Origin: Minisyncoccota bacterium
Lineage (GTDB): Bacteria; Patescibacteriota; Minisyncoccia; Minisyncoccales; Minisyncoccaceae
Reading direction: 5' to 3'
DNA length: 64,000 nt
Assembly (NCBI GenBank): GCA_041663305.1
Contig: JBAYMT010000003.1
Location: 17,949 to 81,948 of the forward strand
Made by a program: the position numbers and the translations under genes. Below the pieces are notes generated by a model. The model ran no database searches and had not been told where the DNA came from. It saw nothing but the letters and a program-made list of their open reading frames with translations. How positions within the stretch are numbered: the stretch's first letter is position 1; each line of letters begins with the position of its first letter. This document shows positions 8,569 to 38,719 of the stretch, piece by piece.

Positions 8569-9459
8569 ATGAACAAAAAAATATTAATATTTGGAGTCAT
8601 CATTATTTTAGTTTTTGTTGGTTCTCTAGTATATTTTAATGATTTTAACAAAAAACAAAATCAGCCACCCGTTGCGCAAGTAACATATATTTGTAACGAC
8701 AACAAAACGATAAATGCAACTTATTACAAGGGCGAAACCAAAACCGTAAAACCAGGAGAACAACCAATTCAAACCGGCAGTGTAAATATAGTTTTAAGCG
8801 ATGGTCGTGCTTTAAACTTATTACAAACTATTTCCGCAGACGGATCACGCTACGCTAATAGCGATGAAACTTTTGTTTTTTGGGGGAAAGGAAACGGCGC
8901 CCTTGTACTAGAAAATAATATTGAAAAAAACTACATAGGGTGCGTGATAGAAGCTAAAGATCCAGGAGAACTGCCCAATATTTACCATGATGGTACGGTT
9001 GGTTTTTCAATCCGCTATCCAAGTGGATATTCAGTCAATCCCGATTATCAATACCAAGCCCTTGGTCCAAACAAGGAAATACACGGAACAAAATTTACGG
9101 TTTCTCCAAATATTACAAACGGTACCAACTTATCAAATGACACGGGAATTTCTATCGAGATCATTCCAAATGCTCAAAACTGCAATGCCGGGCTTTTCCT
9201 TCTTGATAATTCAAATGTTAAAACAATAACCGACAATAACACTGAATATTCCTTTGCCTCATCTAGTGATGCTGCCGCCGGCAATAGATATGAAGAAAGT
9301 GTTTGGGCGTTTTCAAACACCAATTCGTGTATTGCTATCCGCTACTTCATTCATTATGGAGCTATTGAAAATTACCCTCAAGACACAATTCAAGAATTTA
9401 ATAAAACATTACTAATCAATCAATTTGATAAGATACGTCAAACACTTATTGTTCAATAA
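8569..9459 (+). CDS. membrane-anchored protein with MliC-like (lysozyme-inhibitor) domain plus C-terminal orphan domain
   Basis: Start moved to MNKKILIFGVIIILVFVG (signal anchor). VTYICNDNKTINATYYKG...VNIVLSDGRALNLLQTISADGSRYANSDETFVFWGKGNGALVLEN fits the MliC pattern (Y.C....v.......L.q..SASGarY......fW.KG.ea.l). Confidence 0.65.
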   Translation: MNKKILIFGVIIILVFVGSLVYFNDFNKKQNQPPVAQVTYICNDNKTINATYYKGETKTVKPGEQPIQTGSVNIVLSDGRALNLLQTISADGSRYANSDETFVFWGKGNGALVLENNIEKNYIGCVIEAKDPGELPNIYHDGTVGFSIRYPSGYSVNPDYQYQALGPNKEIHGTKFTVSPNITNGTNLSNDTGISIEIIPNAQNCNAGLFLLDNSNVKTITDNNTEYSFASSSDAAAGNRYEESVWAFSNTNSCIAIRYFIHYGAIENYPQDTIQEFNKTLLINQFDKIRQTLIVQ

Positions 9460-9503
9460 ATAATATTTTACTAAAATAATACTCTACTTTTTTTATCATT
9501 TTC

Positions 9504-9598
9504 TTGTCATTGCGCACCCCCTCTGTCATTGCGAGCTCCGCCTCAGGCGAACGAAGGCTGTGTCCTCCGTAGCCTTATAGCAAAGGAGGAAGCAATCT
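9504..9598 (+). repeat. nested-hairpin intergenic repeat, locus A (TGTCATTGCG... / ACCCCCTCTGTCATTGCGAG ... GGAAGCAATCT)
   Basis: 5' frame CTGTCATTGCGAG and 3' frame GAAGCAATCT (ATTGC/GCAAT can pair) enclose two hairpin modules: CGCC-TCA-GGCG and TCCTCC...GGAGGA. Ends 8 nt before the promoter of 9656. Confidence 0.85.
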
Positions 9599-9606
9599 AT
9601 TTTATC

Positions 9607-9635
9607 TTTACAAAATTAGGAAAATAAACTATAAA
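9607..9635 (+). promoter_or_regulatory. sigma70-like promoter TTTACA-N17-TATAAA
   Basis: Immediately 3' of repeat locus A and 20 nt upstream of ATG 9656 (AGAGGA SD between). Confidence 0.5.
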
Positions 9636-9655
9636 TCAAACCAGAGGAAACCAAA

Positions 9656-9853
9656 ATGGAAACATGTATTAGATGCGGAGGGGAAGCTAAATCGTTTTTC
9701 AGATCAGGCACAGTCGGAAATCAGGTCTGGTTCAGGTGTCAAAAATGCGAAACAGAATGGCAGGATCATTGCCACACCTGCGGAAGCCTAATGGAAATTC
9801 ACTGTTCCCTAGACGACGCATTTGCCACCTGCGTAGTATGTGGTGGTCAATAA
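9656..9853 (+). CDS. small double zinc-ribbon protein (65 aa)
   Basis: CIRCGG...CQKC...CHTCG...CVVCGG gives four CxxC pairs. Has its own TTTACA-N17-TATAAA promoter, AGAGGA SD and hairpin terminator. Confidence 0.6.
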   Translation: METCIRCGGEAKSFFRSGTVGNQVWFRCQKCETEWQDHCHTCGSLMEIHCSLDDAFATCVVCGGQ

Positions 9854-9854
9854 A

Positions 9855-9878
9855 AAGCAGTAACCTGCTTATTTTTTT
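9855..9878 (+). terminator. intrinsic terminator
   Basis: AAGCAG-TAAC-CTGCTT followed by T7. Confidence 0.75.
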
Positions 9879-9887
9879 ATCTTTTAT

Positions 9888-10135
9888 TGTCATTGCGCAG
9901 CCTCTGTCATTGCGAGTTCCGCCTTAGGCGGACGAAGACTGTGTCCTCCGTAGCCTTGGCGAAGGAGGACTGTGTCCACCGAAGCTTTCTTGTTCACCGT
10001 AGTCTTGACGAAGGAGAAAGCGTAGGTGGAAGCAATCTATTTACCTCGCCTGTCATTCCCGATTTAGTCGGGAATCTACAAAAATGCCTTAAGCCTGCAA
10101 AGCAGACTATTTATCTCGCCTCAGGCGGACAAAGT
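9888..10135 (+). repeat. nested-hairpin intergenic repeat, locus B (several units)
   Basis: TTGTCATTGCGC + CTGTCATTGCGAG - TCCGCC-TTA-GGCGGA - TCCTCC..GGAGGA - TCCACC..[nested insert]..GGTGGA - AGCAATCT (to 10038). Then variant unit TGTCATTCCCGA-TTTA-TCGGGAATCT (10051-10077), then a further hairpin module. Confidence 0.85.
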
Positions 10136-10139
10136 ACCA

Positions 10140-10244
10140 ATTACTAGTTACTAATTCCTAATTACTAAAATTAAACAATTACTAGTTACAAATTACTGAT
10201 TACTAATGTTTTACCAATTACTAATTCCTAATCACTAACTCACA
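10140..10244 (+). repeat. phased heptamer array, 12 x (A/G)TTACTA-like, in 3 blocks of 4
   Basis: Block 1, 10140-10167: ATTACTA GTTACTA ATTCCTA ATTACTA. 10-nt spacer. Block 2, 10178-10205: ATTACTA GTTACAA ATTACTG ATTACTA. 11-nt spacer. Block 3, 10217-10244: ATTACTA ATTCCTA ATCACTA ACTCACA. Abuts TTGACA at 10245. Confidence 0.85.
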
Positions 10245-10321
10245 TTGACAAAACCACCCAAATATCCCATTGTATAAAAGTCTAAAAAGACACTAGTACA
10301 TTACAAAAAAGGAGGAAAAGA

Positions 10322-10852
10322 ATGCCGATTTGCTATATTCATGGTATTAACTACACCACCGAAGATATTCTGGAAAAAATGCGGGAAGAAATCATAACCG
10401 CAATAATTTCCATTCCCGAGCTTGGTCTCAACGAAGACATGGTTTCCGTCTTCTTCCCAGCAGACCAACGCTACATCATGAACGAAGGAGTTTCCATTAC
10501 TATTATGGGACTCTACGATAAGCCCGAGCGCACCGAAGAGGTACGAAACATTTTGGCCAGAAATGTTGGAAAGACCATTGAAACCTGGCTCCCCGGAATT
10601 CAAATCGAATGTCTTATTTTTCCATTCATCCCTGCTCAAGGCTTCTGGTGTTCTCAAGATGAGCTCCGCTGCACACATTGCCGACACGAAATCGCCTGGA
10701 CCATGTCCACTACGGTAATACTCCCCACCGAATGTAATGGAGAAATTGAAGTCATCGGGTATCCTTGCCAAACCTGTGGCACACTCCACGAAAAGGACGG
10801 AAAGCCTATTATGAAAGATGGAAAACCTGTCACACTGAAAGACGTAATATAA
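10322..10852 (+). CDS. Pro-1 tautomerase-like N-domain fused to zinc-ribbon C-domain (hypothetical)
   Basis: AAGGAGG SD 7 nt upstream and a CAGAATC-AAA-GATTCTG+T7 terminator after the stop. MPICYIHGINYTTEDILEKMREEIITAI...MVSVFF resembles the 4-OT beta-alpha-beta unit. C-terminus has CTHC...CQTCG. Confidence 0.65.
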   Translation: MPICYIHGINYTTEDILEKMREEIITAIISIPELGLNEDMVSVFFPADQRYIMNEGVSITIMGLYDKPERTEEVRNILARNVGKTIETWLPGIQIECLIFPFIPAQGFWCSQDELRCTHCRHEIAWTMSTTVILPTECNGEIEVIGYPCQTCGTLHEKDGKPIMKDGKPVTLKDVI

Positions 10853-10877
10853 CAGAATCAAAGATTCTGCTTTTTTT
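10853..10877 (+). terminator. intrinsic terminator
   Basis: CAGAATC-AAA-GATTCTG followed by T7. Confidence 0.8.
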
Positions 10878-10929
10878 ATTAAAGCCCACAACACTTCCAA
10901 TTTTTCCCAAAAAAATAAAGGCAATCGCC

Positions 10930-11370
10930 TTATGAAATTTTCTTTTTTAAATACGGCCAGAACGTTTTCGCCGTATGCGGATCACTTTCGATCGTGATGT
11001 CAATGAGATAAATTATTGCCTCAAGCGAAGCCGCCTCCAGGATTTCATTCGGAATACCCGAAAGCGCCTTGACCGGTTTTCCATCATTCATGTAAAGCCG
11101 AATCACCATGTCGGCTTCGTCCACCGAAATCGGAGACTCTGCTTTTCTTTTTAGCTTTATAAAGCTTGTGATCTCACTGATGTCTCCAAGAAGCTCCTGG
11201 GCAAAAGCCGAGACAAACGCCTTAGATATGTTCAGCCTCATCACTACGTCAATCGCAGTCGTCAGGCCATCATTGCCACTTTCCAAAACCTTAACAACTG
11301 TTTCCTCATCCGACGCTCCAACAACCTTGTTTAGGTTTTCAATAAGTCTTTTTAATTTTTCACTATCCAT
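10930..11370 (-). CDS. hypothetical protein
   Basis: Clean 146-aa ORF, helical-looking, GGAG-type SD region. No motif recognised. Confidence 0.5.
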   Translation of the reverse strand: MDSEKLKRLIENLNKVVGASDEETVVKVLESGNDGLTTAIDVVMRLNISKAFVSAFAQELLGDISEITSFIKLKRKAESPISVDEADMVIRLYMNDGKPVKALSGIPNEILEAASLEAIIYLIDITIESDPHTAKTFWPYLKKKIS

Positions 11371-11564
11371 TCTAAAACTCCTTGGCCAAAGCCACTACCA
11401 ATTCAATACCCTAAACCAGCACTTATGTCAAATTCGCAAGACATCCATTACTACACAACAAGCTTTTGTAAAAAAACGACCCACCATTTAAGGCGAGTCA
11501 TAGTTTGTACAATTATTAATATAGTTATAGTATTAAAGTATATTTCAATATACTTTTTGTTTTT

Positions 11565-12311
11565 ATGCAACCTAAAATATCATTTAAAGTAGATAAAGAA
11601 AAAGATTTTTTATCATATAAGGCATTTTTAAATGATGCCGAATATAACAAACTGATCTTAGATTGGGCTTTTTTTAATAAACACCCTAACTTGAAAAACT
11701 CCATTAAAGAAAGTGACGGTCATTTTATCGGAAACGACAATTCTATTAAAAAATTTATCAACGAATATTATTCAAACAACCTGAATAGCATAAAGAGCAA
11801 TATGAAGGAATATGAAAGAATATGGAATACAAAAAAAGATGAATACTTCAAGCTAGTTTCCGAACTATTTAGTAATGATTATTGGCCAAAGGGGGAATAC
11901 GTTGCATATTCTACAATATGGGGACTATTCCCAAGATTCTTAGAAGAAAAGTCATTCCAAATTCCAGCAATTTACGAAAAAAAAGACTACATTCAAGTAA
12001 TTATTGCCCACGAAATGTTACATTTCATATTCTATAACTACTTTTTGAAAAACTACCCAAAATACAATATGGAAGGTGATGATTTTTTTATATGGCACAT
12101 CTCCGAAATCTTCAATTCAATAATACAAAATTCCAAATCCTGGCTTAATGAGTTTAAAACAGAAGCCCAAACATATCCCGAGCACGATAAAATTATCGAA
12201 AATTTAGAAAAAAAGTATAAAAATAGCTCAAACTTCGAAACCAAGGAACTAATTGAAGATATCCTAAGTGAAGTAAAGAAAAATCCAAACTTGTACTCCT
12301 TTGAAAATTAA
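11565..12311 (+). CDS. hypothetical protein with HExxH motif (putative zinc-metallopeptidase-like)
   Basis: IIAHEMLHFIF is the only recognisable motif. Lies immediately upstream of the HEPN-motif trio. Confidence 0.5.
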   Translation: MQPKISFKVDKEKDFLSYKAFLNDAEYNKLILDWAFFNKHPNLKNSIKESDGHFIGNDNSIKKFINEYYSNNLNSIKSNMKEYERIWNTKKDEYFKLVSELFSNDYWPKGEYVAYSTIWGLFPRFLEEKSFQIPAIYEKKDYIQVIIAHEMLHFIFYNYFLKNYPKYNMEGDDFFIWHISEIFNSIIQNSKSWLNEFKTEAQTYPEHDKIIENLEKKYKNSSNFETKELIEDILSEVKKNPNLYSFEN

Positions 12312-12479
12312 CTCATTTGCATTCCAAAACCAAAAGTAGTATAACAAAGGCAACGAGACGCCAGACGCCCCAATTATTTAAACGAATAGGGAACATGTGC
12401 TCACATCCCTCAAATTCCAGTATTCTAATTATCAATACTTAATTTTTAAGCATCTCTTTTGAGATGCTTTTTCAAAAAA

Positions 12480-13079
12480 ATGGAAAAAGAAGATCTTCTA
12501 AGCCAAATTGATCGGATATTATCAAATTTCAATCGAGAAGGAATCTCCGAGGCAGTCGAACTATTAAGAATATATGCCGGCGAAAAAAGCTCGTTTTATA
12601 AAGGAATCGCAGAACTAAAACCAGAATTATACTGGCATGAACCAACGGTAGAAACTGCAAAAGGGTTTTTAATCGGATTTAAAAACTTCTTAACAAGTGG
12701 ACTCAATCAAGGAATTTCAATAGAAAGAAAAGTTCAGATTGACACAGTTTCAGACTTACTAGAACAAGCTAATATATTACTTATTTCAAAAGAAATTCAT
12801 CCAGCAGCACCCACTATGATTATGGGCGCAGCTTTAGAAGAATTCTTAAGAAATTGGACTGAAGAAGTCATGATTTCTGTAGAAAAAAAAGGAATTGACT
12901 CTTACGCAAAAGCATTACGAGAAAATGAGCTAATAGATAAACAAGACTATAAAGATATAACCTCATGGGCTGGTTTAAGAAATAGTGCAGCTCACGGAAT
13001 ATGGAACGAGGTGGAGGATAAAAAAAGAATAGGTATTATGTTAGAAGGAATTAATTTATTTATGAGAAAATATATATAG
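12480..13079 (+). CDS. HEPN-like domain protein (Rx4H)
   Basis: Start moved to MEKEDLL, because the listed start lies inside a 9-bp hairpin (AAGCATCTC/GAGATGCTT). C-terminal half GAALEEFLRNW...ITSWAGLRNSAAHG carries the HEPN Rx4-6H signature. Confidence 0.6.
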   Translation: MEKEDLLSQIDRILSNFNREGISEAVELLRIYAGEKSSFYKGIAELKPELYWHEPTVETAKGFLIGFKNFLTSGLNQGISIERKVQIDTVSDLLEQANILLISKEIHPAAPTMIMGAALEEFLRNWTEEVMISVEKKGIDSYAKALRENELIDKQDYKDITSWAGLRNSAAHGIWNEVEDKKRIGIMLEGINLFMRKYI

Positions 13080-13107
13080 ACTTAGAAAGTTAAAACTAAA
13101 ATAAAAA

Positions 13108-13896
13108 ATGGATAACAAAAACATAGACAATATAAACTGGAAAGATAAATCGATATTTATATTAGGATTTCTCGCTATTTTTGTTGCATTAGCACCTTTT
13201 AAAGATGATCTATCTAACATTAAAGTATTAAGCAATCCAGACTTAACTTTATGGAATTTATTGCTAGTATTTATTGTTATTTTGGTAGTCTCAATTTACT
13301 TATACGCATTAAATTATATCAAATACATCTTAGGAAAGTATCAAAATAGTATAATATTTAAAATAATTACAGCTTTAGCAGAATTCTGTTATCTGCTCGC
13401 TTTACTGCTTCCAATTATTATAGTTTTATGGATACTAATGACAAAATTACCATATAGTCCAATTAGTAGCAACAATTGGTCTATTATATTGTCGATAATA
13501 AGCATACTTACAACAATTTTTGCGACTTATAAAATTTTTAAAGTAAAAAAGGAAGCGCTACTAGAACTAGTAGAAGGAAAAAGGATAGTGTATTTAGATA
13601 ATGCATTAAATTTATACTCTAATGGATTTTACGCCGAAACAATCATAGAAATTGGAAAGGTTCTTGAAATATATTTAAAGAAAAAATTACTAGAAAAAGG
13701 ATTAACCTCTAACTATATGTCATTAGGAAAACTTATAAGATTTTCTAACGATGAAAATATAATAAATAGAAAATATTCATCCAGGATTGCAGACATTGTT
13801 GGAATGAGAAATAGCGCAGTTCACTCTCAAAAAACAATAAGTAAAAAAGATGCCGACCTTGCAATCGAGACAATAAAAGAAATATTACTCTCCTAA
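13108..13896 (+). CDS. multi-pass membrane protein with C-terminal HEPN-like domain (Rx4H)
   Basis: Four hydrophobic helices in residues ~15-135. C-terminal ETIIEIGKVLEIYLKKKL...IADIVGMRNSAVHS. Confidence 0.6.
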   Translation: MDNKNIDNINWKDKSIFILGFLAIFVALAPFKDDLSNIKVLSNPDLTLWNLLLVFIVILVVSIYLYALNYIKYILGKYQNSIIFKIITALAEFCYLLALLLPIIIVLWILMTKLPYSPISSNNWSIILSIISILTTIFATYKIFKVKKEALLELVEGKRIVYLDNALNLYSNGFYAETIIEIGKVLEIYLKKKLLEKGLTSNYMSLGKLIRFSNDENIINRKYSSRIADIVGMRNSAVHSQKTISKKDADLAIETIKEILLS

Positions 13897-13993
13897 GTCA
13901 AATTTAGTAAATTACATTAAATACAAAAATTTTTAAAGAAAATGTTTGCCCAAATTGCAAAACACCTATCAATTAACCCCTAAAACATAAAAA

Positions 13994-14602
13994 ATGAACA
14001 CAGATTACGAAATAGACGAATTGGACAGGTTTATCGATATTGTCCGCTCTTTCTACGAAAAGGATGGATTTAATGCTCTTTATATTAAGCTGTTTTCATT
14101 GCGCGATTACTTTCGATATTCCGTCTCAGAAATTCGCACTCAAGAAGAAAATCTAGAACTAATGAAAAATGGTGAACATAACAATTTTGCAACAAACGAA
14201 GAATATCAGGAATCAGAAATGCGAATTTTTTCATGTGCAATAAGTTCCTATGGACACATGAGAACCTGTCTCCATTTCGTAAGAATGATATGTAAAGAAA
14301 AAGACGACCCACAGTTACTAGCAATAAGAGAAAAATATAAAAAATGGGCCGAAAATTTAGTTGACAAGAGGGATCGAATTCAAGCTCATCCCCATGAAGA
14401 ATGGGCAATAGCAGGCGAAGTATCTGGGAGAAATAGCAACGGAGAAGTATACTTTAATACAAGAGATTTTACTAAGTCTAGCAAGAGTAGGAAAATAACA
14501 CTCACTCCTAGAAAAGATTTAGAAATTTTAAGAAGTTATTTAAAAGAAATTTCCATATATTTTATTAACGTACTATCTCAAAACCACCAGGTTAAGAGTT
14601 AG
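13994..14602 (+). CDS. HEPN-like (AbiU2-like?) protein
   Basis: VDKRDRIQAHPHEE carries Rx5H in a helical context near the C-terminal third. Weaker than the two preceding genes. Confidence 0.45.
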   Translation: MNTDYEIDELDRFIDIVRSFYEKDGFNALYIKLFSLRDYFRYSVSEIRTQEENLELMKNGEHNNFATNEEYQESEMRIFSCAISSYGHMRTCLHFVRMICKEKDDPQLLAIREKYKKWAENLVDKRDRIQAHPHEEWAIAGEVSGRNSNGEVYFNTRDFTKSSKSRKITLTPRKDLEILRSYLKEISIYFINVLSQNHQVKS

Positions 14603-14768
14603 TCAATTATCAGAGCACTCCCATCCCAAAATGGGAGTTTTTTATATATAAAATCAAGTCCCTTTACACTTTTTTACAATTTTAGGCTATTACAAAAACA
14701 CATTTCAAGTTGAGATGTTAATTTTTTACTGGACAATATTTAAATATATTATATAGTATAAAAGCACT

Positions 14769-15122
14769 ATGAAAGGATTATGCGTTATTATTAAGGGTGT
14801 AATAAGCCCCGAAGACTGCCCAGAGCATCCAGCATATGTTCATGTCATAGCTCCGTCAGTAAAAGAAGCAAAAGACTGTATTCGTAATTTTTTTGAAGAG
14901 TTTCGTGCCAGTGTAGGAGAGGAGATTCTGCTAAAGATAAAATATATCCCAACGGAAGTTCTCGTCCACACACTAGACAAAAGCGAAATAATCGCATACG
15001 ATCTCGGAACCCTAAAAGATGACGGAACGTATGAGTGTTCTGGATTCGCTAGTATGCCAGACTATTTGTCTGATGCGTACCTTAGAATGAGTCTTGAAGA
15101 GTGCTTTGAACAAAAGGGTTGA
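14769..15122 (+). CDS. hypothetical protein
   Basis: 117-aa ORF downstream of a conserved promoter-like box. No motif recognised. Confidence 0.5.
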   Translation: MKGLCVIIKGVISPEDCPEHPAYVHVIAPSVKEAKDCIRNFFEEFRASVGEEILLKIKYIPTEVLVHTLDKSEIIAYDLGTLKDDGTYECSGFASMPDYLSDAYLRMSLEECFEQKG

Positions 15123-15250
15123 TATCTTATCTTAAAGATAATTTAATCGCCCTATTTTTTTTACAAACTCTCGCAATTTGACAAATGACAAATTCTCTAA
15201 TATAAAATTAGTAATATTGGCGTGGTTAATAACCGCACCTATTTTTTTAT

Positions 15251-16207
15251 ATGCAATCTAATTTCTGGAAAAAACTAAAAAAACCAATCATCGTTTCAGC
15301 TCCAATGTCAGGAGTCACAGACGATGCATTTAGACTTATGTTTCTAAAATATGGGAGACCAGATGTTTTTTGGACAGAGTTTGTTTCTGTTGAGGGACTA
15401 TTTTCTAAAGGACGAGACAACTGTCTTAAAATACTAAAATTTTCTCCCGAAGAACATCCAATAGTTGCTCAAATTTTTGGCTCAGACCCCTTATACTTCA
15501 AAAAAACAGCCGAGGAAATAGAAAGACTTGGTTTTGATGGCATAGATATCAACATGGGATGTCCCGATAAGACAATAGAGCAGAGAGGGGCAGGCGCAGC
15601 ATTAATAAAAAACGTTGAACTAGCAAAACAAATAATTAGAGCAACAAAAGAAGGGGCAAAGAAAATTCCTGTCTCAGTAAAAACTCGTCTTGGATATCAT
15701 GAAAATCAAATTGAAAAATGGATTGTACCACTCCTACAAGAAAACATTGCCACACTAACAATACATCTTCGCACCAGAAAAGAAATGTATAAAGCTCCTG
15801 CGCAGTGGGAATCAGCAAAAGAAATTGTAAGGTTAAGAGATTTATATTCTCCAGAAACATTGATTATTGGAAATGGAGATGTAAAATCACTTCTGCAAGC
15901 GCATGAATTAGCCAAAGATAATAGGCTTGACGGAATTATGATTGGACGAGCTAGTTTAGGAAATCCTTGGCTTTTTTCGGACAGATTACCTCGGGCTTCA
16001 GAAAAAATAAAAGCTATTATTGAACATACAGAATTTTTTAATGATCCTAAAAGATTTAATGCCATGAAAAAACATTACCACGCATACGCAAAAGGATTCA
16101 ATGGAGCTAAAGAACTAAGAGATAGACTAATGGAAACTAAAAATTATTCTGAAGTTAAAAAAATAACAGAAGAATTTCTCTCCCGCCCAAGCATTAGGGA
16201 AGAATAG
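15251..16207 (+). CDS. dus: tRNA-dihydrouridine synthase
   Basis: SAPMSGVTDDAFRLM, GFDGIDINMGCP (catalytic Cys), TIHLRTR, GNGDV. Typical Dus TIM-barrel signatures. Confidence 0.9.
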   Translation: MQSNFWKKLKKPIIVSAPMSGVTDDAFRLMFLKYGRPDVFWTEFVSVEGLFSKGRDNCLKILKFSPEEHPIVAQIFGSDPLYFKKTAEEIERLGFDGIDINMGCPDKTIEQRGAGAALIKNVELAKQIIRATKEGAKKIPVSVKTRLGYHENQIEKWIVPLLQENIATLTIHLRTRKEMYKAPAQWESAKEIVRLRDLYSPETLIIGNGDVKSLLQAHELAKDNRLDGIMIGRASLGNPWLFSDRLPRASEKIKAIIEHTEFFNDPKRFNAMKKHYHAYAKGFNGAKELRDRLMETKNYSEVKKITEEFLSRPSIREE

Positions 16208-16350: not shown

Positions 16351-17496
16351 ATGTTAATAGGACGAATAGCCATATATGTACTAATTATTATTTTCACGGT
16401 AGCGCTCGAGCAAGAAACTGGATGCGATTTTTCTTTTTTCGGTTCAAAGGGTGACTGCGCAACAGCGTTTAATTTAGCCACGATATCTCTAATAACATTA
16501 TTTATCGCTTTGTTTGATTTGATAATTTCACTATTAGCTTTTCTTGTAAGGTATAATAAGAAAGATCCTGGATTTAAAGAATTCTTTTCCAAAACACTTA
16601 AATTTTGCAAAAAGTTTAAAAATATTCTGATAAGCATTTTTATTCTCATTATTCTACTTCTTTTTATTGGACTAACAAAGCTTGGATATATAGAAAATTA
16701 TCTAAACATTACTTCACTATATCCAGATACCGCACTGATAGAAAATGTTGAGAAAAAAAATTTAAATAAAATAAGGCAATTAATTAAAGATGGATTTAAT
16801 ATAAACGCAGCCAATGAGGATAAAGAAACAGCATTAATGTTTGCAGCCGACAGTAAAGAAGTAGAAATAGTAAAAGAATTAATCAAGGCCGGAGCCAATG
16901 TTAATGCAAGGGATGCTTATAACAATACACCACTTGTCTTCGCAATTAGATATACTAAGGGAGACGAGGGTTTAGAAACAGTAAAAGAATTAATTAAGGC
17001 TGGCGCTGACGTAAATGCAAAAGCTACCAATCAAGGACTCCCCATACTAGCTATTGCCTATAACCCCAAAATAGTAAAAGAATTAATTAAGGCTGGCGCT
17101 GACGTAAATGCGACATCTGATGATGGATATACAATACTGATGAACTACATATACGGAGAGAATAGCTTAGAAAATACACAAGAACTAATCAAAGCCGGAG
17201 CCAATGTTAATGCACAAAACAATGACACGGCCTTAATGTTTGCGATCAGACGCGGATGTACAGAAATTGCACAAGAACTAATCAAAGCCGGAGCTAATGT
17301 TAATGCACAAAACAATGACCTAGAAACGGCACTAATGCTAGCTTCTCGTGGAAATATTGACATCGTAAAAGAACTTATTAAAAATAATGCAGATGTAAAT
17401 ATTAAAAATGATCAAAATCATACAGCCCTAGACTATGCTGCTAATTTCAAACAGATAGAAATAACCAAAATCCTAAAAGAAGCTGGGGCAAAATAA
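16351..17496 (+). CDS. membrane-anchored ankyrin-repeat protein
   Basis: N-terminal TM helices, then about 8 ankyrin repeats (ETALMFAA....VEIVKELIKAGANVNA). Two pairs of near-identical DNA repeats: 16981-17018 vs 17074-17111, and 17179-17226 vs 17272-17319. Confidence 0.85.
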   Translation: MLIGRIAIYVLIIIFTVALEQETGCDFSFFGSKGDCATAFNLATISLITLFIALFDLIISLLAFLVRYNKKDPGFKEFFSKTLKFCKKFKNILISIFILIILLLFIGLTKLGYIENYLNITSLYPDTALIENVEKKNLNKIRQLIKDGFNINAANEDKETALMFAADSKEVEIVKELIKAGANVNARDAYNNTPLVFAIRYTKGDEGLETVKELIKAGADVNAKATNQGLPILAIAYNPKIVKELIKAGADVNATSDDGYTILMNYIYGENSLENTQELIKAGANVNAQNNDTALMFAIRRGCTEIAQELIKAGANVNAQNNDLETALMLASRGNIDIVKELIKNNADVNIKNDQNHTALDYAANFKQIEITKILKEAGAK

Positions 17497-17689
17497 TAAA
17501 AATTAGTACATCCCTGAACACAATAGGTAATAATTTTAAAAACTAGGTTAGAATAATCCCCATTACTGACACACTCTCCAGTTTCCCTTACGCCCCCTCC
17601 TAACACAGGGGGGGTTTTATATGCAGAAATCCTCGCCCCCTACACATTTTCTCAATTTTAGGCTATCATAAAACCACAATTCAATAAGC

Positions 17690-17914
17690 CTAAACCTTAG
17701 TTTTTCTAAGGCATGGCAACAAACCAACCGCGGATAAAGTGCTCTTCATCAGACACCGTGGTTGGTCATATCCTCGAAAGGGGGTATGGGTAGCGAAAGC
17801 TATCACTGGTGGGGAGCTTTTTGTTTCCCACAAATAACAAATATAAACCAACCACAAATATGAAACTCTAACTTTTTATTTTACTGCCTCGCTTTGCGAG
17901 TCTTTTCGTTTTGC
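17690..17914 (+). ncRNA. candidate structured 5' leader / riboswitch-like RNA upstream of 17946 gene (class not recognised)
   Basis: Promoter-like TACACA-N17-TATCAT (17642-17670). 10-bp helix CCAACCGCGG/CCGTGGTTGG (17724-33 / 17756-65). Two consecutive GAAA-tetraloop hairpins (17769-17786, 17789-17804). Intrinsic terminator CTCGC-TTT-GCGAG + T-rich run (17888-17914), 30 nt before the ATG. Confidence 0.3.
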
Positions 17915-20202: not shown

Positions 20203-20361
20203 ATGAATTTTATTGAAGTGTCCCAAGGAACGCTAACCGCAGAGCAACTCGCAAAACTACACTTCGCACTAGGGAATACCACCCAACAAACAATAAAGCC
20301 GATTGTAGTTCTTTCTCAAGAACAATTAGCGCAATTGAAAGCAAATAGCGAGAGCGACTAG
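20203..20361 (+). CDS. hypothetical 52-aa protein
   Basis: Not in the ORF track. TTGACT-N17-AATACT promoter (20156-20184), AGAGGA SD, CCCAC/GTGGG+T6 terminator. Confidence 0.4.
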   Translation: MNFIEVSQGTLTAEQLAKLHFALGNTTQQTIKPIVVLSQEQLAQLKANSESD

Positions 20362-20426
20362 AACGCCAACAAATCCCACCAACATCGTGGGCTTTTTTAT
20401 TTCCTTTCCGTTATTGCAGTTGTTTG

Positions 20427-20649
20427 CCTGTCATTGCGAACAACGTCATTGCGAGGAATGACTGCGTCCACCGTCTTTGTCCTTCGTAGCTCAGAGAGCG
20501 AAGAAGGAAGCCTTGGCGAAGAAGGACTGCGACCTCCGTAGCCTTGGCGAAGGAGGAAGCAACCTCACTCTTCACCCCTTGTCATTGCGATCCGCCTTTG
20601 GCGGAGAAGCAATCTATAAAGATGCCTTCAAGCTTTCTTGAGAAAGCCT
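20427..20649 (+). repeat. nested-hairpin intergenic repeat, locus C
   Basis: CCTGTCATTGCGA..GTCATTGCGAG...multiple CGAAG/GGAGG hairpins...GGAAGCAACCT. Then simple unit TTGTCATTGCGA-TCCGCC-TTT-GGCGGA-GAAGCAATCT (20579-20615). Then hairpin AGCTTTC-TTGA-GAAAGC. Confidence 0.85.
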
Positions 20650-20652
20650 CAA

Positions 20653-20687
20653 TGTACTAATTACTGATTACCAATTACGAATTACTA
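20653..20687 (+). repeat. phased heptamer array (5 units)
   Basis: TGTACTA ATTACTG ATTACCA ATTACGA ATTACTA. 8 nt before TTGACA at 20696. Confidence 0.8.
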
Positions 20688-20695
20688 AAATATTA

Positions 20696-20724
20696 TTGAC
20701 ATCAATCCAATAATGGATTATATA
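20696..20724 (+). promoter_or_regulatory. sigma70-like promoter TTGACA-N17-TATATA
   Basis: 8 nt after the heptamer array. The -10 ends 7 nt before GTG 20732. Confidence 0.5.
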
Positions 20725-20731
20725 AATTATT

Positions 20732-20869
20732 GTGCAAAGCGAACAAGTAGGGACCTGTACGCTCGAGAGAACAATAATCAACGGCGAAACATGGTACAAA
20801 TGCAAATGCAATAAAGTTCCATGGAAGGATCATTGCCCCAACTGTGGACGTATGGCGCCAAAAACATAA
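20732..20869 (+). CDS. small zinc-ribbon protein (45 aa, GTG start; ...CTLERTIINGETWYKCKCNKVPWKDHCPNCG...), possibly leaderless
   Basis: Not in the ORF track. TTGACA-N17-TATATA (20696-20724) ends 7 nt before the GTG. AAGTAC-GAGA-GTACTT+T7 terminator after the stop. Confidence 0.4.
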   Translation: MQSEQVGTCTLERTIINGETWYKCKCNKVPWKDHCPNCGRMAPKT

Positions 20870-20954
20870 GTACGAGAGTACTTTTTTTCTTACTCCAATA
20901 ATTTTATTGACAAACAAGCTCTGCCATACTACAAGAAAGATAGAGGAAGTCACG

Positions 20955-21344
20955 ATGTACATTTTTACAACACTGTACCTATGGGTATTTAAAAAACGGC
21001 TTTTTGAAGAAAGTTTTGGAATCGCCTTTCCTAAAACAGAAGCGGAAAGAAACAAAATCGCTCCAGAAATCAAAAAGGCACTTACCCAAATTTGCGGAGA
21101 AATGGAATCGGCCAAAACCGAATTGGAAAAGCATGGGCTATCAACCTTTTCCAATCCCAACCCTGTTACTGCGACATGGTGCATCGCAGCAACAAAACAA
21201 AAGACGGAAAAAGAAGAATTATACGCAAAACTTTCGCGTCTTGCGCGTTGGGCAGGGTATTCGCCTTTGTTTTTCGAAAAAATCGAAAACACGGCAAAAG
21301 AAATCGGAAAGGACGGTGGCCTAACTTTTTCCACCGGAACATAG
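20955..21344 (+). CDS. hypothetical protein (129 aa)
   Basis: Start moved to the ATG preceded by AGAGGAAG; the listed start 20844 lies in the previous gene and terminator. Hairpin+T8 terminator after the stop. Confidence 0.5.
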   Translation: MYIFTTLYLWVFKKRLFEESFGIAFPKTEAERNKIAPEIKKALTQICGEMESAKTELEKHGLSTFSNPNPVTATWCIAATKQKTEKEELYAKLSRLARWAGYSPLFFEKIENTAKEIGKDGGLTFSTGT

Positions 21345-21373
21345 ACCAAATGGTCTTTTTTTTATTACTTCTA

Positions 21374-21402
21374 TTGACACACCAGATAAAAAATTGTATT
21401 TT
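21374..21402 (+). promoter_or_regulatory. sigma70-like promoter TTGACA-N17-TATTTT
   Basis: Upstream of 21422 (AGAGG SD). Confidence 0.5.
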
Positions 21403-21421
21403 AAAATCAGAGGTATGAAAA

Positions 21422-21703
21422 ATGCCAAACATTGAAGTATATGGAAAGGAAAAAAAAGACCAGCAAGAAGTAATCAATGCAATTTATGCGATTTTTCTTC
21501 ACAATTTTCCCGAAAAGTTTGATGATGTCGTCATAACTTTTGTTAATTCAGGGGTGTATGATCTTTTTGGGAGTAAAAAGCCATTCGTTCGGGTATATCA
21601 CACAAATTTGGAAGAAGCAAAGCAGATAGCAAAGGTTTTATCTGCATATATGGATGCCGAAGTTATGCTGCTGACCGCATTTTTCGAAAACAGCAAAGCA
21701 TGA
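21422..21703 (+). CDS. small Pro-1 tautomerase-like protein (tentative)
   Basis: MPNIEVYGKEKKDQQEVINAIYAIF...VVITFV resembles the 4-OT beta-alpha-beta unit. TTGACA-N17-TATTTT promoter, AGAGG SD, GAACC-A5-GGTTC+T7 terminator. Confidence 0.5.
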   Translation: MPNIEVYGKEKKDQQEVINAIYAIFLHNFPEKFDDVVITFVNSGVYDLFGSKKPFVRVYHTNLEEAKQIAKVLSAYMDAEVMLLTAFFENSKA

Positions 21704-21723
21704 ACCAAAAAGGTTCTTTTTTT
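21702..21723 (+). terminator. intrinsic terminator
   Basis: GAACC-AAAAA-GGTTC followed by T7. Confidence 0.75.
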
Positions 21724-21770
21724 AATTTAAAACTCTTTTCTATTTTCTATTTTTTTGGTAAAATTACCTT

Positions 21771-23210
21771 ATGAATAAAAAGTCTTTTACTCTAATTGAA
21801 CTTTTGATTGTAATTGCCATTATTGGTATTCTTGCCGGTATTCTTATTGTCTCAATGATAAGCGCTACTAATAATGCTAATGACGCTAGAAGAAAAGCCG
21901 ACATCAGCCAGATAGTAAGTTCACTATTAGCATACAACGCCTCAAATGGCAGTTATCCTTCTTCTAGTACCTGCGACATTGGAAGTAATTGCTCCGCTCA
22001 AGTTAATACAGCCTTAGGGGATTCGGTTAATGCTACAGATCCAATTGCTGGAAATTATTATACATATTGGTCCGATGGTAATGTTTTTATCATAAATGGC
22101 GTATTGTCTGACTCATCCGATTATAGTTATGTTTCTTCAGTTGGATATCTTACCGATCCAACTGTTCCTACATGCGGAACAGCCAGCAAAACATACTACG
22201 CCACATCATCTACATACGGATCAAATACTTACTGCGTTAATGGAACAGAAACATCCACTCCTGATTTTCCGGGAATAGGCGAAACAAAAACTTGGGTCTG
22301 CAATGGAAATGGAATTGATGTTAATTGCAGTGCCAGTAGGGTAGCCAGCGCCTGCACAGCTAGTAATTCTTGCACCGAAACAACAAGTGGCACATACACA
22401 GTAAATAAATACTCAACCGTTGGATCAACCACATGGGTAGTTCCTACAGGCATAACTCAAGTTGAATATTTGGTTATTGCTGGAGGTGGCGGTGGTGGAG
22501 GATCGGCACAAAGCAATGGTGTGACTGGAGCTGGAGGCGGAGCCGGAGGCTATAGGACAGGTACACTGGGCGTATCGGGAACTATAAACATAGCCATTGG
22601 AAACGGTGGAGCTGGTGGAGCAGGATACTCAGATGGAAATGGTGTTAATAATAGCGGATCAAACGGACAAGATTCTTCATTTAGTTCAATCACCTCTGCT
22701 GGAGGTGGCGGTGGTGCTGGCGGAGCAGCTGGATCTACGGCTGGATTATCAGGTGGTTCTGGTGGTGGTGGTGCTGGTTATGGTAATTATGCAGGTGGAG
22801 CGGGAAACACTCCAAGCACCAGCCCAAGCCAAGGATACAATGGAGGAAACGGAATTGGTGATGCATCATACGCTGGAGGTGGCGGTGGTGGAGCAGGTGG
22901 AGCAGGAGGTACAGGATCAACAAGTACCGGACAACCAGCTGGCGCAGGAGGCATTGGAATTACAACTAGCTTTTCGGGAGTATCCACAACCTATGCCGGA
23001 GGTGGCGGAGGAGGTGGAAGCTCATCCTTATCACGATGTACCGCTGGACCAGGAGGAAGTGGCGTAGGGGGAAACGGAGGATACATAAGCGCAGGCGCTA
23101 ATGGAGTTGCAAATACTGGCAGTGGTGGCGGAGGAGGAGGCGCAACTGGATATTATGCTGGAGGAAATGGAGGATCAGGAATTGTAATCGTAAGATTTAC
23201 TACACCCTAA
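21771..23210 (+). CDS. type IV pilin-like (prepilin N-terminal methylation motif) protein fused to glycine-rich C-terminal domain
   Basis: KSFTLIELLIVIAIIGILAGI is a class III signal. The C-terminal 250 aa are GGxGG-rich, bracketed by VEYLVIAGGGGGGGS and GGNGGSGIVIVRF. Confidence 0.8.
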   Translation: MNKKSFTLIELLIVIAIIGILAGILIVSMISATNNANDARRKADISQIVSSLLAYNASNGSYPSSSTCDIGSNCSAQVNTALGDSVNATDPIAGNYYTYWSDGNVFIINGVLSDSSDYSYVSSVGYLTDPTVPTCGTASKTYYATSSTYGSNTYCVNGTETSTPDFPGIGETKTWVCNGNGIDVNCSASRVASACTASNSCTETTSGTYTVNKYSTVGSTTWVVPTGITQVEYLVIAGGGGGGGSAQSNGVTGAGGGAGGYRTGTLGVSGTINIAIGNGGAGGAGYSDGNGVNNSGSNGQDSSFSSITSAGGGGGAGGAAGSTAGLSGGSGGGGAGYGNYAGGAGNTPSTSPSQGYNGGNGIGDASYAGGGGGGAGGAGGTGSTSTGQPAGAGGIGITTSFSGVSTTYAGGGGGGGSSSLSRCTAGPGGSGVGGNGGYISAGANGVANTGSGGGGGGATGYYAGGNGGSGIVIVRFTTP

Positions 23211-25300: not shown

Positions 25301-25386
25301 CTCTGTCATTGCGAGGATTCGCCAATAGGCGAAAACGAAGCAATCTATTTATTTGCTTCTCCGCCAAAGGCGGATCGCAACGACAA
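25301..25386. repeat. nested-hairpin repeat, locus D: one forward unit plus one inverted unit
   Basis: Forward unit CTCTGTCATTGCGAGG-ATTCGCC-AAT-AGGCGAA-AACGAAGCAATCT (25301-25346). It is followed by TTGCTTCTCCGCCAAAGGCGGATCGCAACGACAA (25353-25386), the reverse complement of the locus C simple unit. Lies between divergent genes. Confidence 0.85.
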
Positions 25387-33554: not shown

Positions 33555-33627
33555 ATTGTCATTACAAGACATAGTCCACCTGTTTGTCATTGCGAGGAAA
33601 TGAACGAAGTGAATAACGAAGCAATCT
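33555..33627 (+). repeat. nested-hairpin repeat, locus E (short)
   Basis: ATTGTCATTACAAG ... TTTGTCATTGCGAGGAAATGAACGAAGTGAATAACGAAGCAATCT. Confidence 0.75.
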
Positions 33628-36310: not shown

Positions 36311-36561
36311 CCTGTCATTCCCGCCTGTCCGTCGTAACCCTCGCCGTCGCGTAGCCGCTATGGCGGAGCACGGTTGGTGAAGACGGAATAAATCAAAAAT
36401 AAGCGTAGTCGGGAATCTTATAAAATGTTCAAGTTTACGAAGTAAACTACCAGGCCCGAATTACTAATTATTTATTCCTCGAAGCCTTGGCGTAGGCCGG
36501 AAGCTCGAAGAGCGAAGAAGGACCGTGTCCACCGAAGCCTTGGCGTAGGTGGAAGCAATCT
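36311..36561 (+). repeat. nested-hairpin repeat, locus F (composite)
   Basis: CCTGTCATTCCCG...[insert]...GTCGGGAATCT (36311-36418), AGTTTAC-GAA-GTAAACT hairpin, a short ATTACTA block, then ...TCCACCGAAGCCTTGGCGTAGGTGGAAGCAATCT (to 36561). Confidence 0.85.
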
Positions 36562-36565
36562 TTGA

Positions 36566-36620
36566 GCTTGCGAAGCAAGCCACATTGTACTAGTTACTAA
36601 ATACGAGTTACTAATCACTA
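36566..36620 (+). repeat. GCTTGC-GAA-GCAAGC hairpin followed by phased heptamer array (5 units)
   Basis: TGTACTA GTTACTA AATACGA GTTACTA ATCACTA (36586-36620), ending 8 nt before the galT ATG. Confidence 0.8.
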
Positions 36621-38348: not shown

Positions 38349-38543
38349 TATTTAAATATTATTTAAATATTTTAAAAATAAAAAGAACCCCGATCAAGGG
38401 TCTTTTTATTTGATATTTTTATTTTTTAGCAGAGCCAAAAATAATTTTATATATTGATTTTATCTTTGACTCAAAAAAAACGAGCCAAGAAGAAATATAT
38501 CAAAAAGAAAATTTTTCGTCAAGACTATTTCAAAAATAATTTA

Positions 38544-38711
38544 CCTGTCATTAATATCCGCAAGTGAAGCAATCTTAATTACAAGGATTAATAATTCGTA
38601 ATTCGTAACTAGTACTAGGTAGTTTTCTTCCAGAAAACTTTTAAAATACAGAGAGCTTACTGAAAGTAAGCTTCCAAACACTAATTGCCAGCTACTGATT
38701 ACTAATTACTA
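38544..38711 (+). repeat. nested-hairpin/heptamer repeat, locus G (degenerate), abutting the recombinase gene 3' end
   Basis: CCTGTCATTAATATCCGCAAGTGAAGCAATCT (38544-38575). Heptamers ATTCGTA ATTCGTA ACTAGTA CTAGGTA (38594-38621). Hairpins AGTTTTC/GAAAACT and AGCTTAC-TGAA-GTAAGCT. Heptamers AACACTA ATTGCCA GCTACTG ATTACTA ATTACTA (38677-38711). Confidence 0.75.
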
Positions 38712-38719
38712 AGATTGTA

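Follow-up and report, generated by a model that had tools for sequence, protein, structure and literature searches.

Seven intergenic repeat loci in a 64,000-nucleotide stretch of DNA from a Minisyncoccota bacterium, a member of the candidate phyla radiation (CPR), are probably mosaic clusters of repetitive extragenic palindromic (REP)-type non-coding palindromes, selfish and non-autonomous elements that are mobilized in trans. This whole stretch (GenBank assembly GCA_041663305.1, contig JBAYMT010000003.1, positions 17,949 to 81,948), hereafter called the window, corresponds to positions ~83,599-147,598 of ENA contig ERZ27247350 k141_2132110 and has a GC content of 35.8%. The names given to homologues of its GalT-like and Dus proteins assign it to Candidatus Paceibacterota (CPR/Patescibacteria). 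The loci are numbered in order along the window: locus 1 (9504-9598), locus 2 (9887-10244), locus 3 (20427-20688), locus 4 (25301-25386), locus 5 (33555-33627), locus 6 (36311-36620), and locus 7 (38544-38715). Comparison with related genomes shows that the repeat units are inserted DNA that has accumulated stepwise, with new units placed inside or beside older ones.

Three kinds of unit can be distinguished, namely a frame, an inserted hairpin of about 30 nucleotides, and a tail that consists of a small hairpin and heptamers. Frames are of two types. The first reads (C/T)TGTC-ATTGCGAG ... (G/C)GAAGCAAT-CT. The second, which resembles the neisserial repeat dRS3, reads cTGTC-ATTCCCG ... CGGGAAT-CT and is present at 10049-10077, where its halves are written ATTCCCGA/TCGGGAAT, and at 36312-36419. 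Every frame head in the window reads (C/T)TGTCATT. The inserted unit has the consensus C(Y)TGTCC-NCC-G(T/A)A-GCC-TT-GGC-G(A/T)A-GGN-GGA, as exemplified by the inner hairpin ACTGT-GTCCTCC-GTA-GCC-TT-GGC-GAA-GGAGGAC. Tail hairpins take the forms GCTTTC-TTGA-GAAAGC, GTTTAC-GAA-GTAAAC, GCTTGC-GAA-GCAAGC, and GCTTAC-TGAAA-GTAAGC, and are followed by CA(A/T)TGTACTA and then by (A/G)TTACTA heptamers.

All seven loci listed in a preliminary description of this DNA are present. With at most one mismatch, the frame head GTCATTGCGA gives 13 matches in the window against 2.6 expected, and the wider frame-head pattern YTGTCATTSCSR gives 17 against 3.3. The inner hairpin core CCGWAGCCTTGGCGWAGG occurs six times with three or fewer mismatches, always on the + strand, and the small hairpin TCCGCCTNAGGCGGA occurs five times (0.04 expected in each case). 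The frame 3' half GAAGCAATCT taken alone is a weak signal (13 matches, 6.4 expected). A covariance model (CM) of the inner hairpin was built from 70 copies, including five of the seven in the window; it recovers all seven on the + strand with E values of 1e-10 to 2e-4, and the copies at 9557 and 20474 were outside its seed. The phased heptamers that had been reported also appear as TRF arrays at 10135-10238, 20655-20688, 36588-36614, and 38693-38712. As had been remarked, some listed open reading frames (ORFs), such as 9887-10147 and 9529-9627, are mere translations of the repeats. Nesting of hairpins within hairpins can be seen directly, because GTCCACCGAAGC-CTTG-GCGTAGGTGGA is intact at 36526-36552 and carries a 30-nucleotide unit in its loop at 9974-10030. 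The fixed order of frame, inserted hairpins, tail hairpin, and heptamers (modules i to iv) that had been ascribed to every locus holds for four of the seven (loci 2, 3, 6, and 7); the other three (loci 1, 4, and 5) consist of frames only. The repeats are also not all on one strand, given that 25301-25386 is a tail-to-tail inverted dimer, and the + strand holds all seven hairpins and 12 of 13 frame halves. Overall, the preliminary observation is real but over-regularized.

The insertion of these units becomes apparent when the window is set against six related Paceibacteria stretches (L123, L126, L251, L252, L493, and L494) totaling ~116 kb. The L-numbers used here and below are labels of loci and contigs from elsewhere, with L003-L122 and L131-L250 being foreign loci and L253-L452 being viral contigs from IMG/VR. 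Most of the related stretches are syntenic with the window, and their GalT-like and Dus proteins are 69-80% and 77-85% identical, respectively, to those of the window. Neither the frame nor the inner hairpin occurs anywhere in these ~116 kb, and there are almost no heptamer arrays. A lack of conservation in relatives, which the preliminary description had listed, together with a lack of further copies genome-wide, as what would refute it, is thus what these six stretches display.

Three orthologous spacers were compared: that between the gene for a 161-aa protein and RNase T, that upstream of the GalT-like gene, and that downstream of TIM. In the first, the window repeat is placed between a terminator and a TTTACA-N17-TA(G/C)TA(T/C)AAT promoter, and the relatives' orthologous spacers keep the terminator and promoter landmarks and lack the frame and hairpin repeats. 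The insert at 33556-33627 is missing from the relatives' orthologous spacer. Upstream of the GalT-like gene, four relatives have a terminator, TATAAT, 6-13 nucleotides, and the ATG, whereas the window has the same -10 box, then 310 nucleotides of repeats, and only then the ATG; the whole block 36311-36620 is missing from the four. Downstream of TIM, the genomes form a graded series, in which L123 and L126 carry nothing, L252 carries tail modules iii and iv only, L251 carries the tail plus TAATTCG heptamers, and the window carries a degenerate frame, an extra hairpin, and the tail.

A second stepwise series exists within the window itself. It begins with a frame enclosing hairpin A (20579-20615 and 25303-25346), continues with the addition of hairpin B (9523-9598), and ends with a further 61 nucleotides of nested sequence (9904-10038), such that locus 2 equals locus 1 plus a 61-nucleotide nested unit. 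These graded series, together with the units that are extra relative to orthologous spacers, indicate that the mosaics grow by accretion. The proposal that the element is mobile or recombinogenic and expands by inserting hairpins into hairpins is therefore upheld by presence and absence among syntenic relatives and by the series in the window. As judged from these sequences, the tail modules are a separate family common to the clade, and the frame and hairpin units are recent arrivals in the lineage of the window. Solo 5' half-frames (GTCATTGCGA...) stand 8-20 nucleotides upstream of a complete frame; they are found at 9504, 9887, 20428, and 33556 and also in L049, L050, and L118, which belong to other phyla. 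Their recurrence suggests abortive or partial copying.

Neither the frame nor the inner hairpin is specific to the host of the window. When the frame was searched as GTCATTGCGA-N10-40-GAAGCAATC in contigs representing one genome per species, at least 120 loci were obtained, with hosts among the matches listed that include Bradyrhizobium, Nostoc (L018 and L068), Pedobacter, Chryseobacterium, Chloroflexota, Planctomycetota, Omnitrophota, Patescibacteria, and Helicobacter, including Helicobacter rodentium. Among these matches, frames are often found as inverted pairs or doublets 20-60 nucleotides apart. The inner hairpin core occurs at a minimum of 120 loci in metagenome contigs of 31-73% GC, and frame and inner hairpin are each present in at least 120 predicted viral contigs (IMG/VR). 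Identical 10- to 18-mers of both units recur across many phyla and in viral contigs. What sets the window apart is the way in which the units are combined. All seven inner hairpins in the window lie inside or against a frame, compared to one of 249 foreign copies (L229), and a second unit stands beside 18 of the 249. Only one long multi-hairpin frame was found outside the window among ~480 loci.

Heptamers also accompany the units elsewhere. Period 7 is the commonest period of short tandem repeats in the foreign loci (L131-L250 and L003-L122), and such arrays are about threefold enriched within 200 nucleotides of either unit (13 in 48.9 kb compared to 51 in 601 kb); in a second set, 8 were found in 56 kb near a unit and 38 in 788 kb. 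The heptamer sequence differs from contig to contig; L202, for instance, has GGGGAAC and L224 has GAATCCC. Some further observations on foreign copies can be recorded here. Some viral contigs (L262, L274, and L310) carry three to four copies on one strand, and some copies in viral contigs lie within ~30 nucleotides of recurrent, unannotated ORFs resembling phage structural genes. In four unrelated metagenome contigs (L153, L178, L226, and L238) the hairpin is part of a larger conserved context of ~150 nucleotides (...ggggaccaggggcttgcccgtggggtccatt...); in the other orientation, the hairpin is split and carries an insert of ~72 nucleotides. No Rfam family matches.

The inner hairpin is supported by covariation. 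Among 123 foreign copies, the outer-stem pair -4/+21 is C-G in 51 and T-A in 46, and a second outer-stem pair is G-C in 59, T-A in 23, and A-T in 8. The center of the hairpin is a G.A / N.N / A.G internal loop, whose middle pair is TA in 60 copies, AA in 45, AT in 12, and TT in 6, and thus Watson-Crick pairing is not required there. In the 70 inner-hairpin sequences, 93.4% of cells are paired and 61 double-sided changes are present, and the observed covariation is reached by none of 500 shuffles and by no slid register. The ATTGC/GCAAT helix of the frame is invariant in the 57 sequences, but it was part of the query with which they were found, and its invariance neither supports nor contradicts pairing. 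The inner helix of the frame has compensatory changes in 16 and 8 of the 57 sequences. The G.A pairs of the inner hairpin can form only on the purine-rich strand, whereas nearest-neighbor folding energies (ViennaRNA) were no better for the + strand than for the - strand. Likenesses to the K-turn, signal recognition particle domain IV, and loop E were considered and dropped, as no computed result supported them.

Mosaic arrays of REP-type units are known as neisserial intergenic mosaic elements (NIMEs) and bacterial interspersed mosaic elements (BIMEs). The frames are filed here as variant members of the CGTC/TGTC-tagged REP superfamily, as it is defined in text, and the loci are filed as NIME/BIME-like mosaics. 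The preliminary description had recognized no described family in this architecture, and in this respect it needs revision, because the frame agrees with CGTC REPs as these are defined in text (Di Nocera, De Gregorio and Rocco 2013, BMC Genomics 14:522, PMC3733652) and the unit at 10049-10077 is near dRS3 (PMC1797815). Neisseria dRS3 belongs to this superfamily, as do Rickettsia RPE-4 and RPE-6. According to the passages of the survey used here, the members of the superfamily have an unpaired 5' tag CGTC (with variants TGTC and CCTC), an 8- to 9-bp stem that begins with two A-T pairs, a loop of 4-5 nucleotides (atypical in a few families), and a 3-nucleotide tail that is mostly CCA; head-to-head dimers predominate, clusters are rare, there is no associated transposase, and the hosts belong to distant phyla (PMC3733652).

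Measured against this text definition, rather than against family consensus sequences, the window frames share an intergenic location, the lack of a transposase, a short 3' tail, an uneven occurrence among close relatives, and a spread over distant phyla. The tag agrees with that in the survey passages, as window heads read (C/T)TGTCATT and foreign copies carry CGTC or TGTC. The stem agrees exactly at 10049-10077 (ATTCCCGA/TCGGGAAT), and in the ATTGCGAG type the ATTGC/GCAAT helix has five Watson-Crick pairs and an AT start and is continued by G.A mismatches. As in the CGTC REPs of those passages, no transposase is found among the window ORFs, and there is no recurrent neighbor gene. A CPR bacterium is a host that the cited survey passages do not name.

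The likeness to NIMEs extends to the arrangement of units. The dRS3 repeat, ATTCCC-N8-GGGAAT, is a building block of NIMEs, whose arrays differ between strains, and filamentous phages use it as a target for integration (PMC1797815). In the window, ATTCCC-N9-GGGAAT is found at 10055-10075 and as a split copy at 36317-36416, while most units are of the ATTGCGAG type. Both systems alternate ATTCCC...GGGAAT-type palindromes with other repeat families and vary in unit number between related genomes, and in both GC-rich palindromes lie in AT-richer spacers (38-56% GC for the loci, except for locus 7 at 32%, compared to 36% for the window). The interleaving of palindromes with other repeats, in arrays that vary between relatives, is what defines a NIME- or BIME-type mosaic, and it is what the window contains. 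Unlike NIMEs, the window also has other repeats inside the palindrome loop, other unit sequences, and heptamer tails, and no dRS3-targeting phage or recombinase was seen in it. E. coli BIMEs similarly combine palindromic units with extra motifs in a recurring order, but their units alternate in orientation, carry a GTAG tag, and are linked to RAYT, whereas window units have a TGTC tag and a common orientation, and no RAYT was found. What REPIN/RAYT systems share with the window is short hairpin repeats that behave as a population within a genome, and foreign frames often form inverted doublets. However, no RAYT (Y1 HUH) gene was found in the 64 kb plus a 9-kb extension, and the 5' GTAG tag is lacking; in the window, GTAG/GAAG is confined to the hairpin, where it belongs to the G.A/N.N/A.G loop, and there is one doublet. 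REPINs are also described, in the relevant part of the RAREFAN preprint, as mostly vertically inherited, in contrast to units that share identical 10- to 18-mers across phyla.

Tandem heptamers have precedents of their own. TAACTGA intergenic heptamers have a patchy cross-phylum distribution in Beggiatoaceae, Cyanobacteria, and Bacteroidetes, and arrays located just upstream of start codons were proposed to be post-transcriptional sites (MacGregor 2015, PMC4679880). Window arrays resemble these in being tandem, intergenic, and similar in sequence (TTACTAA/TTACTGA), and one locus stands directly before a start codon. They differ in being attached to hairpin modules and in the heptamer used, and also in placement, as two arrays precede promoter-like hexamers recognized by eye and one lies at a convergent gene end. 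Cyanobacterial hairpin repeats of 21-27 nucleotides (SDRs) have reportedly been proposed to be mobile and are said to be nested and to occur with tandem heptamers (STRR). The window would be like this system in its nesting and heptamers, and different in its non-photosynthetic CPR host and its heptamer. We know of no mechanism for either the cyanobacterial STRR heptamers or the TAACTGA repeats. A literal literature search for the frame sequence returned only primer coincidences, and one of limited scope for the inner hairpin core matched no paper. No Rfam family matches the loci at gathering score, none is found at E<=1 in 9450-10320 or 20350-21800, and eight foreign loci yielded one tRNA only.

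The units are probably selfish, non-autonomous elements, and an enzyme that is encoded elsewhere and acts in trans would copy them by way of a single-stranded hairpin intermediate. Candidates for such an enzyme would be an HUH/Y1-type protein (with REP/RAYT or IS200/IS605 chemistry), an IS110/Piv-type protein that targets dRS3, or another type. Unequal recombination between copies may add to the mosaics, as suggested by loci 1 and 2, two near-identical direct repeats with a small accessory gene between them. Viral contigs could help the units to pass from one phylum to another. Consequences for the host would be mostly neutral or small, because the elements occupy the space between terminators and promoter-like sites: loci with readable flanks lie after terminators, and loci 1, 2, 3, and 5 lie before promoter-like hexamers, which were read by eye and were not listed by a stricter promoter scan. 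Locus 6 may be an exception. Inserted between a conserved -10 box and the GalT-like start codon, it would either be transcribed as a structured leader of ~320 nucleotides or supply a new promoter.

Certain observations fit selfish, trans-mobilized REPs less well. Relative to the survey passages on CGTC REPs, only the copy at 10049-10077 (loop TTTAG) has a 4- to 5-nucleotide loop, and the other window interiors span 15-110 nucleotides and hold one to four hairpins. Window tails read CTA or CTT, and foreign copies CCA(G) or CTC(C/G), instead of mostly CCA. Also, rather than head-to-head dimers, the window has one tail-to-tail dimer (25303-25386) and otherwise co-oriented, clustered units. Several quantitative features of that definition are therefore lacking in most copies, which is why the frames are filed as variants. 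The searches of the 64-kb window and 9-kb extension, out of a 318-kb contig, found no mobilizing enzyme. In addition, the purine-rich G.A design means that only one strand is a good hairpin, and G.T outnumbers A.C about 2:1 (23 compared to 11) in the stems of foreign inner-hairpin copies. The uniform + orientation in the window parallels gene orientation and would also fit a role at the RNA level, but it could instead result from oriented accretion or from the direction of replication; GC skew has no turning point within the window.

The searches for machinery and for insertion footprints bear on a different origin, in which the loci are decayed fragments of conventional insertion sequences (IS) or miniature inverted-repeat transposable elements (MITEs) with terminal inverted repeats and target-site duplications. 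Modular intergenic repeats with presence/absence polymorphism are typical of MITEs. Nevertheless, no terminal inverted repeats bracket any composite locus, the sole inverted repeats being the hairpins themselves, and no target-site duplication was seen at the three nested-insert junctions that were read (9986-10019, L150, and L229). No Y1/HUH or IS transposase was detected by Pfam among the larger window ORFs, and no DDE transposase in the window. Such an origin, named in the preliminary description as a finding that would overturn it, is highly improbable. When the ORFs close to elements were clustered all against all, first for 240 foreign loci and then for ~480, no shared mobilization gene emerged either; the clustering gave generic families and, in viral contigs, ORFs resembling phage structural genes. 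Metagenome assemblies can collapse or misjoin repeats, but an assembly or chimera artifact is scarcely credible here. Assemblies from two pipelines (ENA ERZ27247350 and Logan SRR6484787) match across stretches of 6 and 11 kb that cover five loci, with 0 mismatches at loci 1-2 and 1 mismatch at loci 5-7, which argues that the repeats are not artifacts, and the same units are present in isolate genomes.

Two other explanations give the units a part in recombination or in gene expression. In the former, the mosaics would be NIME-like recombination substrates that grow by recombination with incoming DNA, not by transposition, and that promote the exchange of the accessory genes they flank. The NIME model has been described (PMC1797815), and its application here could draw on the dRS3-like unit at 10049-10077, on the ~90% identity of loci 1 and 2 as direct repeats around a small accessory Zn-ribbon gene, on a region at 9.6-15 kb almost without homologues elsewhere, on the XerC/D-like integrase gene that adjoins locus 7, and on the presence of both element types in viral contigs. 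This explanation is nonetheless unlikely, since the integrase is syntenic in relatives without frames, no IS110/Piv-like gene is present in the window, and single-unit differences such as the 61-nucleotide nested insert resemble insertions rather than exchanges. It is compatible with selfish REPs, however, as the mechanisms are not exclusive. In the latter explanation, the elements would be functional cis-acting RNA modules whose hairpins are transcribed as terminators, mRNA stabilizers, or regulators in 5' untranslated regions, with heptamers acting as sites for protein binding or translation control. The co-orientation of window elements with + strand genes, the GAA loops and G.A pairs on the purine-rich strand, and the position of locus 6 between a conserved -10 box and an ATG would all suit such modules, as would the post-transcriptional role proposed for heptamer arrays before start codons elsewhere (PMC4679880) and the argument, made in the cited part of the REP survey, that many REPs are transcribed (PMC3733652). 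Even so, RNA modules of this sort are quite doubtful. The elements are missing from the compared orthologous positions in relatives, the readable flanks place them downstream of intrinsic terminators, with loci 1, 2, 3, and 5 upstream of the by-eye promoter-like hexamers, no Rfam match was found at E<=1, and the folding energies do not favor the + strand. Sense and antisense copies are about equally common in other genomes and viral contigs, with no orientation bias relative to genes (23:17, 13:11, 31:37, and 11:15, based on crude ORF calls and co-directional flanking ORFs). The suggestion of a transcribed regulatory RNA module has thus gained little from the position of the elements after terminators, their lack in relatives, the Rfam searches, or the strand counts.

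The composition of the individual loci, with features on the + strand unless stated otherwise, is as follows. Locus 1 opens with a solo 5' half-frame TTGTCATTGCGCA at 9504-9516, and the identical solo half also precedes locus 2, at 9887-9899. A full frame, cTGTC-ATTGCGAG...GGAAGCAAT-CT, then occupies 9523-9598 (CM R1 29.7 bits, E 1.3e-5, a copy outside the seed) and encloses hairpin A at 9537-9551 (TCCGCC-TCA-GGCGAA) and inner hairpin B at 9557-9594. In locus 2, a full frame at 9904-10038 (CM 47.5 and 39.5 bits) surrounds four hairpins, namely A (9918-9932), B1 (9938-9973), the host hairpin B2 (9974-10030), and the 30-nucleotide B3 (~9989-10018) in the loop of B2. It is followed by the dRS3-like TGTC-tagged REP, CCTGTC-ATTCCCGA-TTTAG-TCGGGAAT-CT, at 10049-10077 (8-bp stem, 5-nucleotide loop), by the segment 10095-10129 with a small hairpin resembling module iii (CTGC-AAA-GCAG, 10095-10105) and a further copy of hairpin A (10115-10129), and by an array of (A/G)TTACTA heptamers and variants at 10135-10244 (period 7, 14.9 copies). 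Locus 3 comprises, within 20427-20565, a 5' half-frame (20428-20439) and a frame (20445-20565, with the 3' half GAAGCAACCT; CM 25.8 and 42.9 bits) that holds a nested hairpin at 20474-20512 and another at 20526-20561. A simple frame with hairpin A only, TTGTCATTGCGA-TCCGCCTTTGGCGGA-GAAGCAATCT, is present at 20579-20615, and the module iii hairpin GCTTTC-TTGA-GAAAGC followed by module iv (CAATGTACTA and heptamers) fills 20627-20688.

Locus 4 is the tail-to-tail dimer. Its left half at 25303-25346 is a frame with a single inner hairpin, GATTCGCC-AATA-GGCGAAAAC, and its right half at 25351-25386 is a frame on the - strand, TTGTCGTTGCGA-TCCGCCTTTGGCGGA-GAAGCAAAT. Locus 5 (33556-33627) has a degenerate 5' half, TTGTCATTACAAG, and a frame at 33584-33627 whose interior forms no clear hairpin. 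Locus 6 begins with the dRS3-like frame cTGTC-ATTCCCGCC...GTAGTCGGGAAT-CT at 36312-36419, which has an interior of ~80 nucleotides and a weak CM match at 36322-36391. Next, in 36433-36479, a short heptamer-like tract accompanies the module iii hairpin GTTTAC-GAA-GTAAAC (36433-36447), whose sequence is found identically in relative L252 at the site downstream of TIM. The segment 36469-36561 then holds a pair of inner hairpins (36469-36504 and 36522-36557; CM 27.4 and 45.7 bits) against a 3' half-frame, GGAAGCAATCT, that has no 5' partner. The module iii hairpin GCTTGC-GAA-GCAAGC with module iv (CACATTGTACTA and heptamers) at 36566-36620 stops 8 nucleotides short of the ATG at 36629. Locus 7 contains a degenerate frame, CCTGTCATTAATATCCGCAAGTGAAGCAATCT, at 38544-38575, the site of which lacks it in L123, L126, L251, and L252. 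The remainder, 38592-38715, consists of TAATTCG heptamers (38592-38608), an extra hairpin (38622-38638), the module iii hairpin GCTTAC-TGAAA-GTAAGC (38655-38671), and module iv heptamers (38674-38715).

Several features in the surroundings of the repeats can be noted. TIM and the XerC/D-like integrase converge at 38349-39676, and from here to the end of the window the gene orientation is reversed. Tail modules abut the integrase stop codon in three of five lineages compared (L251, 3239-3687; L252, 3947-4184), and a conserved block, gactcaaaaaaaacgagccaagaa.aaatatatcaaaaag.aaat.tttcgtcaa, precedes them in the window, L123, L251, and L252 and is more divergent in L126. Two small, weakly paralogous Zn-ribbon ORFs on the + strand (9656-9853, 65 aa; 20732-20869, 45 aa) share the motif W.(R/K)C.KC...W.DHC..CG, and each adjoins a repeat locus, the first being bracketed by loci 1 and 2. 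The idea that these ORFs travel with the repeats was abandoned because no homologues were found near elements in ~480 foreign loci. The interval 9600-15400 is an accessory region in which most ORFs lack a Pfam domain, apart from one faint HEPN match; among 5.8 billion proteins, its 176-aa protein (10322-10852) has no more than two homologues, both distant. A LOOT RNA (RF03000) is located at 17687-17804 on the + strand (77 bits, compared to a gathering score of 46.4). The 58 nucleotides directly upstream of it (17627-17684) recur with 78% identity at 14651-14708, before an unannotated 117-aa ORF, and no Rfam match was found in 14600-15200. An ankyrin-repeat protein with seven repeats ~99 nucleotides apart is encoded at 16351-17496, and the gene at 21771-23210 specifies a pilin-like protein that combines a methylation motif at its N terminus with a glycine-rich domain; these two genes account for the direct-repeat families D1, D2, and D4.

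A more speculative possibility, and one that is probably too broad, is that the frame and the 30-nucleotide G.A-loop hairpin belong to one very widespread class of tiny mobile elements without a known transposase. It is raised by the identical 10- to 18-mers that extend from Patescibacteria to Proteobacteria and viral contigs, by the enrichment of period-7 arrays nearby, and by machinery that has never been identified. If this were true, a CPR lineage with a recent burst, empty sisters, and a very small gene repertoire would be a minimal system for finding the enzyme, and nesting in hairpin loops would be the footprint of an enzyme that prefers single-stranded loops.

Few non-coding features of bacterial genomes are as common as REP-type repeats, and yet to our knowledge no mobilizing enzyme is known for the CGTC/TGTC branch. 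The loci described here show that both this branch and a second cosmopolitan hairpin extend to CPR bacteria and phage-like contigs, and that expansion can be fast in one lineage while sister lineages stay repeat-free. They also show that nested composites can be built, although these are very rare elsewhere (one of 249). On a practical level, such repeat loci give rise to spurious ORF calls and so should be masked when CPR genomes are annotated, and they mark parts of the genome that are accessory and variable. The combination of a small genome and a recent burst would make this a good setting in which to search for the missing enzyme and to learn why heptamers accompany the hairpins.

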